Below, one piece after another: positions 28,266 to 58,549 of a DNA stretch of 64,000 bases. The position numbers and the translations under genes were made by a program. Source of the stretch: a virus (Duplodnaviria > Heunggongvirae > Uroviricota > Caudoviricetes); the IMG/VR virus record IMGVR_UViG_3300032236_001858; one strand, written 5' to 3'. The notes under the pieces were generated by a model. It made no database searches. It was not told the DNA's origin and worked only from the letters and a program-made list of their open reading frames with translations. How positions within the stretch are numbered: position 1 is the first letter of the stretch; every line of letters begins with the position of its first letter.

Positions 28266-28883
28266 ATGATAAAAGTTGGACTTTCTGGTAATAGATATTC
28301 AGGTACTGATGAAATATGTAGTATATTTAGGCAGTATTCAATTCCTGTTTTTGAAGTCGATACTATATTGAAATTTATCATAAACCATGATATAACGGTT
28401 AGTTCTGATATTCGTTCAAAATTAAAATCTATTCATAATGGCGCTGGTTATATTGACCCAAGGTTGATAAGAACAAAGACAGAGGCTGAGGCTGTTATTA
28501 ACTCTGCTAAACATGAATTGATGTCAGCTTATAATAAATTTTCTGAAAAACATAGACAATCAATTTATACAATATTTCATTCATCTATACTATTTGAAAC
28601 AGGTTGGCAAAAAGAAATGAATTTTAATATAAATGTTTTTTGTCCAAAATCAACAAGAATAGAAAGGTGTAAACAAAATTTAAAAATTCCTATTTCAAGT
28701 GCAGCTGATTTGCTAAGAAATGAAATTGATGATTTGGATAAAAATAAAATGGCTAACTTTGTAATTCATAATTACAAAGGAAATAAAAGCCATTTAGATC
28801 AAGTTAATAAAATTGACCAGTATATAATTGATGAGTATTTAGATAGAAAACATAAAAATACTATTATTGAAACACACTTTTAA
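28266..28883 (+). CDS. hypothetical protein (degenerate dephospho-CoA-kinase-like N-terminus)
   Basis: MIKVGLSGNRYSGTDE resembles the start of a P-loop kinase, but the GK[ST] residues are missing. Confidence 0.35.
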   Translation: MIKVGLSGNRYSGTDEICSIFRQYSIPVFEVDTILKFIINHDITVSSDIRSKLKSIHNGAGYIDPRLIRTKTEAEAVINSAKHELMSAYNKFSEKHRQSIYTIFHSSILFETGWQKEMNFNINVFCPKSTRIERCKQNLKIPISSAADLLRNEIDDLDKNKMANFVIHNYKGNKSHLDQVNKIDQYIIDEYLDRKHKNTIIETHF

Positions 28884-28887
28884 ACTT

Positions 28888-29370
28888 ATGGTCCTAAGCA
28901 AAGCGTTGAAAACTATTAAAATAAAGTTAGTCGAACCAACTCCAAATAAGTTAGCTTTTGTCAAATTGATAAAAGATTGCAGTGGCCTTGGTTTAAGAGA
29001 GGCAAAAGATTTATGTGATAATATACATGGTAATCCTGAAAAAGTACATGAGATGCCTATTCGTGACTGGGAAAGCATGGATTATAATACCGGTAAAACA
29101 ACACCTGCAATTACTGATTTTAGAAAAAAGTTCAACACTGAGATTAAAAATGTTGGTGGTAGATTTATTGTTAATGGTGGTGTTCAATGGGATAGAAATG
29201 TAAAAATGTTGACACTTGGGATAGCTGAAAAATCTGATTATATCGAATTTATGAAAGATTATATTTTAAATAAATTTGGTAATTCAGAAGATTTACTTAC
29301 CTTTGTACTCGATAAAATTTCTAAAGAAGATTTACAAGAAATTTTTAATAAAACTAATATAGAATTATAA
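28888..29370 (+). CDS. protein with ribosomal bL12 (L7/L12) C-terminal-domain-like N-terminus
   Basis: KTIKIKLVEPTPNKLAFVKLIKDCSGLGLREAKDL matches the bL12 C-terminal-domain core ([23 protein letters not shown]). The ORF-track start is a TTG at 28867, and the first ATG is at 28888. Confidence 0.5.
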   Translation: MVLSKALKTIKIKLVEPTPNKLAFVKLIKDCSGLGLREAKDLCDNIHGNPEKVHEMPIRDWESMDYNTGKTTPAITDFRKKFNTEIKNVGGRFIVNGGVQWDRNVKMLTLGIAEKSDYIEFMKDYILNKFGNSEDLLTFVLDKISKEDLQEIFNKTNIEL

Positions 29371-45208: not shown

Positions 45209-47038
45209 ATGATTGAACAATTAAAAGCGCAAATTATTAAGGCTAATGATGCCTATAGATTGGGTAAGCCAATCATATCCGATGCTAAATACGACCAATT
45301 AGTTGAGGAACTTCAAATGTTATCACCATCTGATGAAATACTTTCTAAAGTAGGTCATACAGTTGCTGATGAATCCCGCAAATCTCGTCTTCCTATAGAA
45401 ATGGCTTCAATGAATAAAATCAAGTCAATGGAAGATATCGAAGATTGGTCACGTCTTAAAGGTATTTCAAAATACGAATATGTTATTATTACTCCTAAGT
45501 TTGATGGTCTTTCATTATGTGTTAATGAAACAACATCCGAAGCTTGGACTCGTGGTGATGGTGTATTCGGCCAAAAATCAAATGAACACTACTCATTAAT
45601 TCAAAATCATCTTAACCTACAAGAAGATTCATTTAGCTTTACCTATGGTGAAGTTATGATGCCTAAACAAGTATTTGTTGATAAATACTCAGCAGACTTT
45701 GCTAATCCTCGTAATCTTGTTGCTGGTCTTTTAAATTCAAAAGATCCAAGTAATATTCTTAAAGATTGTCAGTATATTAAGTACGGTGCTATTTGTAAAA
45801 GAAACTTCTTTACTAAACAAAATGTTATTAATGAACTTAATAAAGGACAAGCATCAAAAGTACAATATCATATTTGTCAACTATCTGACTTATCAGAAGA
45901 CTTACTAATTGAACTATTCCATAAATTCTCTACTGAATATGAAATCGATGGTTTGATTATAGAATTAAACCGTCTTGAATTACAAGATCAGTTAGGTCGT
46001 GAAACATCTTCAAACAATCCTGTTTGGGCTCGTGCTTTCAAGCATCCAAGTTTTGAACAATCTGCTGAAACTGATGTTATTGGTATTTCTTGGAATATAT
46101 CTAAACAAGGCTTATTAAAGCCAATTCTACATATTAATCCTGTTAAACTAGATGGTGTAACCGTGTCTAATGTTACTGGTAACAACGCCAGATTCGTAAA
46201 AGACTTAGGACTTGGTATTGGTGCTAAAGTAGTCGTAAAACGCTCCGGAATGGTTATTCCAATCATTGCTGATGTTATCACCCCAGTTGAATTTGTTCAA
46301 CCTACAATTGAAGGTGTTGAAGTAGATTGGAATGAAGCTGGTATTGAGTTAATTACTTTAACTGAAACTGACGATCAAAAATTAAAAAAGATTGTTGCTT
46401 TCTTTGAAATCTTAGAAGCTGACAATGTGTCAGAAGGAGTTATCACTCAATTATGGGAAGCTGGTTACAAAACAATTAAAGATGTTCTTAATCTTAAAAA
46501 AGAAGATTTAGAGAAAATTGACCGTTTTGGTAAGAGAAAAGCTGAGATTGTTTTTAACTCTATTCAAAAGTCTGTTAGTGGTGTTCAGTTGTCTAAACTA
46601 CAACACGCAACAGGTATCTTCAAAGGATTAGGTTCTAAGAAATTAGTTCTTTTAGAAGATTTCAAAACTAAACCAACATTAGACCAAGTAATGTCAATTG
46701 AAGGATTTGCTGAAGTATCAGCTCAATCTTATATTGATTCATATGACACGTTCTTTGATTTCATTAAAGATTTACCTGTCACAATTATAGAAAAAGTAGA
46801 GGCGGTTAAAGTTGGCACAGACCTTGAAGGTAAATCATTTGTCTTTACCGGAGTTCGTAGACCAGATTTAGAATCTGTGATTGAATCTCGTGGTGGTAAA
46901 ATTGGTTCTGGTGTGTCTAAAACAACTACTCACCTTGTGATGAAGGCGATTGGTAGTGGCTCTTCTAAAGAAAAGAAAGCTATTGAGTTAGGTGTTGAAG
47001 TGATTACAATTGAACAATTAGAAAAAATGTTATCATAA
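45209..47038 (+). CDS. ligA: NAD-dependent DNA ligase (LigA-like)
   Basis: KxDG adenylation motif (ITPKFDGLSL), OB/HhH region, and a C-terminal BRCT (GKSFVFTGVRRPDLE...). Confidence 0.85.
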   Translation: MIEQLKAQIIKANDAYRLGKPIISDAKYDQLVEELQMLSPSDEILSKVGHTVADESRKSRLPIEMASMNKIKSMEDIEDWSRLKGISKYEYVIITPKFDGLSLCVNETTSEAWTRGDGVFGQKSNEHYSLIQNHLNLQEDSFSFTYGEVMMPKQVFVDKYSADFANPRNLVAGLLNSKDPSNILKDCQYIKYGAICKRNFFTKQNVINELNKGQASKVQYHICQLSDLSEDLLIELFHKFSTEYEIDGLIIELNRLELQDQLGRETSSNNPVWARAFKHPSFEQSAETDVIGISWNISKQGLLKPILHINPVKLDGVTVSNVTGNNARFVKDLGLGIGAKVVVKRSGMVIPIIADVITPVEFVQPTIEGVEVDWNEAGIELITLTETDDQKLKKIVAFFEILEADNVSEGVITQLWEAGYKTIKDVLNLKKEDLEKIDRFGKRKAEIVFNSIQKSVSGVQLSKLQHATGIFKGLGSKKLVLLEDFKTKPTLDQVMSIEGFAEVSAQSYIDSYDTFFDFIKDLPVTIIEKVEAVKVGTDLEGKSFVFTGVRRPDLESVIESRGGKIGSGVSKTTTHLVMKAIGSGSSKEKKAIELGVEVITIEQLEKMLS

Positions 47039-58231: not shown

Positions 58232-58304
58232 GGAACCTAAGCTAATCAGGTGAAAGCACTGGACTGAAAATCCAGGGAGCCCGGATCGTTACCGGGAGGT
58301 TCCA
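58232..58304 (+). tRNA. tRNA-Phe(GAA) variant with a non-canonical T-loop (ATCGTTA), encoded CCA
   Basis: Acceptor GGAACCT/AGGTTCC, anticodon stem CTGGA/TCCAG with loop CTGAAAA, T arm CCCGG-ATCGTTA-CCGGG, then A-CCA. Confidence 0.45.
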
Positions 58305-58315
58305 CCAAAATAAAT

Positions 58316-58389
58316 GGTGTATGTAGCTCAATCGGTAGAGCGTCGGTTTGTGGAGCCGAAGGTAGCGGGATCGTAACCCGTCATTCACC
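58316..58389 (+). tRNA. tRNA-His(GTG) with G-1:C73, non-canonical T-loop (ATCGTAA)
   Basis: G-1 precedes acceptor GTGTATG/CATTCAC (one mismatch). D arm GCTC-AATCGGTA-GAGC. Anticodon stem TCGGT/GCCGA with loop TTGTGGA. Confidence 0.5.
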
Positions 58390-58394
58390 CAAAA

Positions 58395-58466
58395 GGAGAC
58401 TTAGCTGAGACGGTTTAGCGTTTGGTTGAAGCCCAAAAGAGGTCGGTTCGATTCCGGCAGTCTCCA
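58395..58466 (+). tRNA. tRNA-Phe(GAA), canonical
   Basis: Acceptor GGAGACT/AGTCTCC, D arm GCTG..TAGC, anticodon stem TTTGG/CCAAA with loop TTGAAGC, T arm GTCGG-TTCGATT-CCGGC. Confidence 0.6.
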
Positions 58467-58472
58467 CAACAT

Positions 58473-58543
58473 ACGTCATACAGACAAGGTGTCGGTCAGG
58501 TCTCCAAAACCTCGACGGTGGGGTTCGATTCCTCAATGGCGTG
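58473..58543 (+). tRNA. tRNA-like, Trp anticodon CCA, atypical short D arm (71 nt)
   Basis: Acceptor ACGTCAT/ATGGCGT (one G-U pair). Anticodon stem CAGGT/ACCTC (one mismatch) with loop CTCCAAA. T arm TGGGG-TTCGATT-CCTCA. Confidence 0.35.
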
Positions 58544-58549
58544 CTAAAT

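Follow-up and report, generated by a model that had tools for sequence, protein, structure and literature searches.

Phage proteins in which the ribosomal stalk protein bL12 (L7/L12) is represented by its C-terminal domain (CTD) without its N-terminal domain (NTD) have been known since Mizuno et al. 2019, who described both stand-alone proteins of ~100 amino acids (aa) and longer ones, up to 724 aa, in which the domain is embedded (PMC6375957), with Ralstonia phage RSB3 (98 aa), Dinoroseobacter phage DFL12phi1 (106 aa) and two phages of Salmonella, FSL SP-058 and SP-076 (418 aa), as examples (Nat Commun 10:752; PMC6375957). These proteins keep the residues that contact uL11, EF-G and EF-Tu and go back to several independent acquisitions; one of them was identified in 70S fractions by mass spectrometry through a single peptide, and its tagged form failed to co-purify with ribosomes (PMC6375957). 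Amongst cultivated phages, bL12 was found in that study only in those under 80 kb (PMC6375957). For huge phages, L7/L12 has been listed amongst the translation genes by Al-Shayeb et al. 2020 (PMC7162821), and in the later literature searched we found no mechanism for the phage bL12-CTD proteins. Here, we analysed a 160-aa protein encoded in the 64,000-nucleotide (nt) stretch of viral DNA IMGVR_UViG_3300032236_001858 from IMG/VR (the window, in what follows): the protein consists of a complete bL12 CTD followed by an orphan C-terminal domain, has no NTD and is not a bona fide bL12. The class to which it belongs is already described and the advance is incremental; what is new is a distinct architecture, with the CTD placed first, a hairpin insertion and an orphan four-helix domain. 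The gene and its parts are as follows.

28888..29370, + strand: bL12-CTD-like gene (160 aa), ATG to TAA with the stop codon included, from the list of open reading frames (ORFs) and the sequence
28912..29172, + strand: complete bL12 CTD fold as modelled, residues 9-95 (strand beta1 9-16, helix 21-32, helix 36-48, strand 53-57, helix 78-88, strand 92-95)
28948..29031, + strand: helix 4/5 equivalents, residues 21-48, including SGLGLREAKDL; the best-conserved segment of the CTD
28981-29013, + strand: motif SGLGLREAKDL, residues 32-42, read from the sequence
29065..29118, + strand: lineage-specific beta-hairpin insert, residues 60-77, placed in the CTD after strand 2 and before helix 6 (modelled strands 61-65 and 70-73)
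29173..29181, + strand: N-G-G junction, residues 96-98 (N 60%, G 76%, G 75%), between strand 92-95 and helix 99-110
29182..29355, + strand: family-specific four-helix domain, residues 99-156 (helices 99-110, 115-128, 133-143 and 146-156)

An initial annotation, made from the letters of the window alone, had proposed that the protein contains a module resembling the L7/L12 CTD, and had named profile searches and structure prediction as checks. The Pfam family PF00542 (Ribosomal_L12, the L7/L12 C-terminal domain) matches residues 11-46 with 28.5 bits and E=2e-6, above its gathering cut-off of 25.9 bits, and in a phmmer search of all PDB sequences bL12 chains made up eight of the ten top matches (best E=0.0017). 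A family profile built from 108 diverse members (alignment A2) reaches considerably further: it matches residues 63-126 of the 128 residues of T. maritima bL12 (E=8.5e-7) and also aligns with residues 57-117 of the 120 residues of E. coli bL12 (E values for both species from 8.5e-7 to 4.5e-5), a span that comprises the entire CTD right through to its final elements, helix 6 and strand 3. Comparison with E. coli bL12 by hhalign gave a probability of 94% over residues 59-117. Thus, the similarity to bL12 is confirmed to lie well beyond chance and the module is a genuine CTD homologue, with a relationship that covers the whole domain rather than a short motif.

Structure prediction led to the same assignment. 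The AlphaFold2 model exhibits a mean predicted local distance difference test score (pLDDT) of 75, with values above 90 at residues 21-50, and its predicted order of elements, beta-alpha-alpha-beta-alpha-beta over residues 9-95, is that of the bL12 CTD; when predicted viral structures were searched with Foldseek, the top entries were phage proteins annotated as bL12 C-terminal domain, with weak E values of at least 0.006. As modelled, the CTD fold is complete over residues ~9-95 and is interrupted by the beta-hairpin. This hairpin is full-length in only 38 of the 152 full-length family members over which we counted conservation, is reduced to 1-4 residues in a further 49, and corresponds to columns that are gapped in alignment A1, where most relatives are deleted. 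The initial annotation had placed the bL12-like part at residues ~8-50, and whilst the motif does lie there (residues 32-42), the similarity runs on to residue ~95 and takes in the full CTD fold. The accompanying statement that the other 110 aa bear no relation to bL12 does not hold: the protein possesses helix 6 as well as strand 3 of the CTD, leaving only ~60 C-terminal residues without a relationship to bL12.

In contrast to the CTD, the dimerisation and uL10-binding NTD (PF16320) is absent from the whole protein, and no such domain was found by fold either. The bL12 equivalog model of NCBIfam, TIGR00855, scores 26.2 bits against a cut-off of 84.4 bits and aligns over profile positions 59-95 only, so that the claimed lack of an N-terminal dimerisation or L10-binding region proved correct. 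Residues 99-156 instead form a domain of four helices that, when modelled alone (94 sequences), reached a pLDDT of 92.4. No significant Pfam match, PF16320 included, was obtained for this domain in any of the 94 members, and its profile found nothing below E=0.25 amongst PDB sequences: it is an orphan domain without a detectable sequence or fold relative. That its two final helices might resemble the bL12 NTD was considered, but the alignment reached 2 bits only and the follow-up lent it no support. The two domains are joined by the N-G-G junction, which probably acts as a hinge.

The gene itself is real and under purifying selection. A metagenome gene caller independently predicted the same 160-aa gene on a contig of identical sequence, the ORFs that overlap it on the opposite strand (28888-29370) show no conservation, and homologues of the protein fall into at least 73 clusters at 90% identity and number 307 representatives at 50% identity (E up to 0.001). 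Ratios of non-synonymous to synonymous substitution (dN/dS, Nei-Gojobori) against three relatives were 0.14, 0.16 and 0.39. A further bL12-like gene was looked for within the 64-kb window and none was found.

Across the 152 members, L36, K40 and R103 are invariant, and L22, V25, K26, K29, G35, D44, L108, G111 and Y118 are conserved at 93% or more. By profile alignment, L22 of the phage family corresponds to V66 of E. coli bL12, V25 to I69, K26 to K70, K29 to R73, G35 to G79, L36 to L80, K40 to K84 and D44 to E88. In bL12 itself, the residues K65, V66, I69, K70 and R73 have reportedly been implicated in factor contacts both by the mutagenesis of Kothe et al. 2004 and by the nuclear magnetic resonance (NMR) work of Helgstrand et al. 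2007. Zhang et al. 2012 observed that EF-G and EF4 shift the NMR peaks of the CTD at residues 66-70 and 80-85 and state that the same regions had earlier been found for IF2, EF-Tu, EF-G and RF3 (PMC3505967). In the phage family, the mean frequency of the top residue is 0.79-0.82 at the equivalents of positions 66-70 and 80-85, compared to 0.38-0.45 in the remaining CTD. No part of the module is conserved more strongly than the helices that contact factors, in agreement with the initial view that it represents the factor-recruiting part of bL12, and, judged by alignment, the residues with which bL12 touches translational GTPases are held nearly invariant in the phage family.

On this basis we favour, at a probability of roughly 0.5, the reading of the protein as an adaptor, with translational GTPases as its ligands and the C-terminal domain as its tether, where both binding and tethering are inferred. 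It would represent a huge-phage paralogue of the stalk protein in which the factor-catching CTD was kept and the NTD was replaced by an unrelated four-helix domain. The N-terminal domain would bind host translational GTPases (the EF-Tu ternary complex, EF-G, IF2 and others) via its helix 4/5 face, as the stalk CTD does, and the C-terminal domain, following the short glycine hinge, would hold on to a second partner. This could be the ribosome or a protein of the phage, with the CoaE-like product encoded directly upstream as one example. Such an adaptor would bias factor recruitment during infection and would be neither a canonical ribosomal protein nor a free decoy. A second binding function is argued for because the C-terminal domain is conserved, confidently folded and exhibits an invariant residue of its own, R103.

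Several observations count against this interpretation. The affinity of the bL12 CTD for factors is weak (Kd = 0.1-0.4 mM; PMC3505967), which renders the effect of a single CTD uncertain. The N-terminal domain of the phage protein is basic (calculated pI 9.4; C-terminal domain 4.6) compared to the acidic CTD of E. coli bL12 (pI 5.1), so that the surface electrostatics differ. Conservation of helices 4 and 5 could in part reflect fold stability, and the uL11-contacting K95 region has a poorly conserved equivalent, in a part of the alignment that is uncertain. Finally, specific co-evolution with the CoaE-like neighbour was tried as a candidate and rejected: the mirror-tree correlation of r=0.63 was no higher than for unrelated neighbours.

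A factor-binding face conserved on the CTD, together with the lack of an NTD for anchoring to the ribosome, would also suit a free decoy or inhibitor, a protein that titrates EF-Tu, EF-G or IF2 off ribosomes and thereby shuts down host translation. This was the main proposal of the initial annotation, whose interpretation is supported in part. We regard the decoy as improbable: EF-Tu is one of the most abundant proteins of the cell, the phage is itself in need of translation, with tRNAs and an S1-domain protein encoded in the same region, and the conserved second domain would be left without a role. Because the affinity of the CTD for factors is weak and the second domain is conserved, stoichiometric sequestration of EF-Tu or EF-G is unlikely, and the decoy is the weaker explanation when compared to the adaptor; it is likewise the conservation of the second domain that suggests tethering rather than free diffusion of a decoy.

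A more elaborate possibility, which we consider a long shot, is that the phage makes a device for capturing translational GTPases of the host away from the normal stalk pathway. The protein would be its targeting subunit, in which the bL12-type domain would seize EF-Tu, EF-G or IF2 and the four-helix domain would dock them on a phage partner. Candidates for that partner would be the CoaE-like P-loop product, which might modify the factors, or a site on the ribosome other than the stalk; docking at such a site would, if true, provide a phage-specific recruitment arm for phage mRNAs. As a small two-domain example conserved across many huge Bacteroidota-type phages, the protein would be a tractable test case for its class, in which the GTPase-contact surface appears, by sequence, to be intact beside a well-folded orphan domain, and the identity of the partner of that domain would tell whether giant phages possess an arm of their own on the ribosome, redirect factors elsewhere or use the fold otherwise.

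Comparison with the proteins of Mizuno et al. reveals shared features as well as clear differences. In both cases the protein is phage-encoded, combines a PF00542 CTD with unrelated sequence in place of an NTD and is under purifying selection, and the EF-G and EF-Tu contact residues are, by alignment, kept (the equivalents of V66, I69, K70, R73, G79, L80 and K84 are conserved at 93-100%). However, the present proteins constitute a separate family in which the CTD is N-terminal, carries the hairpin insert and is followed by its own four-helix domain, and which occurs on contigs of up to 481 kb. Bacterial bL12, and especially that of the Bacteroidales (for example Segatella bryantii), shares the CTD fold and the KxxVK-type helix 4/5 sequence, whilst the phage protein differs in lacking the NTD, the alanine-rich hinge and the rplJ-rplL context, in its basic N-terminal domain and in its extra C-terminal domain.

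The observation of Mizuno et al. that a phage bL12-domain protein occurs in 70S fractions (PMC6375957), the listing of L7/L12 amongst the translation genes of huge phages (PMC7162821) and the host-like character of the CTD would all be in keeping with a substitute stalk protein, one that enters the host stalk in place of or beside bL12, an idea put forward for viral bL12 in general terms. We nevertheless hold this to be rather improbable. There is no NTD by sequence or by fold, the domain order is the reverse of that in bL12, and the tagged phage protein of Mizuno et al. was not recovered with ribosomes (PMC6375957); since the uL10-binding domain is absent, canonical incorporation into the stalk is the weaker case. 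Moreover, the bL12 proteins of huge phages that we could locate are ordinary full-length ones with an NTD. The only annotation as 'L7/L12' located in the supplement of Al-Shayeb et al. (200 of 257 files searched, many of them in truncated form) belongs to a 127-aa full-length bL12 with NTD on the scaffold SR-VP_4-6, and the 735-kb phage LR756501 encodes a homologue of it, likewise full-length, that is absent from the phage genomes LR745206 and LR756502. Both types are bL12-derived genes of huge phages, but only the full-length one exhibits NTD and hinge, and the two were not found together in one genome in the collection searched.

Other viral arrangements of the domain were also encountered. 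The IMG/VR loci L015-L038 include a family of ~125 aa in which a conserved helical N-terminal domain (consensus ...GLxFMKSITEAYG...LWDTIASTLDPD...) precedes the CTD, as well as proteins of ~710 aa with an embedded CTD; one of these loci, L038 on a 363-kb viral contig, encodes a genuine full-length bL12 with NTD. The idea that the ~125-aa family and the present family have their partner domain in common was rejected, with an hhalign probability of 0.1%.

A further alternative is that the bL12-CTD scaffold has been exapted to bind something other than a translational GTPase; possible targets would be a protein of host immunity, uL11, RNA or some partner from the phage, and one version is an anti-defence decoy. 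It is less likely than the tethered adaptor, though more likely than the free decoy or the substitute stalk protein. Repeats of the bL12 CTD occur in non-ribosomal bacterial proteins with TIR, LRR/LRV or PASTA domains, and one cyanobacterial orthocaspase carries a Ribosomal_L12 domain (PMC8283722). The N-terminal domain is basic, unlike bL12, and the gene diverges at a higher rate than most genes around it, as genes for host interaction often do: mean pairwise identity is 44-49% for the bL12-like, CoaE-like and 241-aa genes (44% for the bL12-like gene), compared to 75-85% for the M16, DUF6915, Band-7 and S1 genes. On the other side, the invariant positions are exactly those at which bL12 contacts GTPases, and no match to a defence or anti-defence family turned up, with no search having been aimed at such families.

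In the public protein library, nine proteins retrieved through their similarity to the window protein (P0092, P0095, P0121, P0129, P0133, P0157, P0183, P0192 and P0211) contain 3-7 complete bL12 CTD repeats in tandem, and tandem repeats of this kind are fused to TIR, LRV/HEAT, LRR or PASTA domains. Outside the ribosome, the stalk CTD seems to recur as a module, perhaps in conflict systems. The fold of the N-terminal domain is also the same as that of ClpS, the N-degron adaptor, and a protein of that type would feed substrates to the Clp protease; yet the identity to ClpS is 7% and no Pfam ClpS match was obtained, and this highly improbable reading was dropped on the sequence evidence.

With regard to origin, a hidden Markov model (HMM) of the N-terminal domain of the family gave Bacteroidales bL12 a score of 47-50 bits, in an alignment spanning almost all of the CTD, compared to 35-37 bits for bL12 from spirochaetes, the candidate phyla radiation (CPR) and chlamydiae and 29 bits for E. 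coli bL12; the bL12 panel was picked by patterns derived from the family and is biased in that respect, whilst the comparison within the panel is fair. The ending KDLCD of helix 5 is common to the phage family and to Bacteroidales bL12 (loci L042 and L044; 28948-29022 in the window), and the bL12 of Segatella bryantii was compared with the phage helix 4/5 stretch KLAFVKLIKDCSGLGLREAKDLCD. This pattern fits a CTD that was captured from a Bacteroidales host or adapted to the factors of one, and hints at Bacteroidales as host or donor. In loci L042 and L044, an ORF of ~172 aa lies immediately upstream of the bL12 gene and is taken, from position and size, to be uL10. An EF-Tu-like GTPase was not detected by tblastn in two complete related phage genomes, and for this reason any GTPase partner would have to come from the host.

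Members of the family were found on contigs of huge phages only. Amongst 50,697 phage records, the window matched only the uncultured phage genomes LR745206 and LR756502 (634 and 642 kb), at nucleotide or protein level, and a tblastn search of the same records with the bL12-CTD-like family returned only these two ~640-kb phages. We take both to be genomes of the study of Al-Shayeb et al. In that study, the genomes above 634 kb all belong to the 'Mahaphage' clade, with Bacteroidetes predicted as hosts (PMC7162821). The identical protein is encoded on a 481-kb contig, and relatives were found on IMG/VR contigs of 45-385 kb in a pattern scan made with a 30-sequence alignment. A pattern scan of 185,579 bacterial and archaeal species (one genome each) yielded no full-length family member, only cellular bL12 CTDs.

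The genes flanking the bL12-CTD-like gene form a conserved operon-like cluster, and its immediate neighbours together with the other assigned features of the window are listed here.

28266..28883, + strand: CoaE-like gene (dephospho-CoA-kinase family), directly 5' of the bL12-CTD-like gene; Pfam CoaE 52 bits
29371..29766, + strand: DUF6915 gene, its start abutting the stop codon of the bL12-CTD-like gene; Pfam DUF6915 125 bits
35271-36368, - strand: 365-aa protein with two S1 RNA-binding domains, near the cluster; syntenic in relatives at 67-85% identity
7187-8935, + strand: SbcC/Rad50-like ATPase
45209-47038, + strand: NAD-dependent DNA ligase with a BRCT domain
58232-61388, + strand: twelve tRNA genes in three arrays (Phe x2, His, Trp, Lys x4, Arg, Ser x3)
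61804-63312, - strand: protein with collagen triple-helix repeats

The CoaE-like gene was found directly upstream in all 12 related loci examined, and in eight of nine measured loci the distance from its stop to the start of the bL12-CTD-like gene was -1 to +9 nt. The DUF6915 gene lies downstream in most relatives, and beyond it there are usually two unknown genes and then those for an SPFH/Band-7 protein and an M28 peptidase. On the other strand, the upstream region encodes a Toprim primase and an M16 peptidase. The rplJ (uL10) or rplKAJL-rpoBC context of cellular bL12 was not encountered, the flanks being formed by the CoaE-like and DUF6915 genes. The P-loop of the CoaE-like protein is degenerate: both the window and locus L007 have GNRYSGTD, in which threonine takes the place of the Walker-A lysine, whilst in other relatives the sequence is GNRYSGK and the next residue D, N, T or K. 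Judged from this motif, the copy in the window may not be an active kinase. The DUF6915 protein, with 80-92% identity among relatives, gave repeated sub-threshold matches to a segment of the catalytic core of cysteinyl-tRNA synthetase (PF01406 E=8.7e-4; TIGR00435 E=5e-4).

For four ORFs of the window, 1055-1430 aa in length, no Pfam family scored above threshold. The protein with two S1 domains represents another translation-related gene near the cluster. Amongst the tRNA genes, three of the four tRNA-Lys calls are 84-88 nt in length, which is unusually long for tRNA-Lys and could reflect introns, extra arms or mis-calls.
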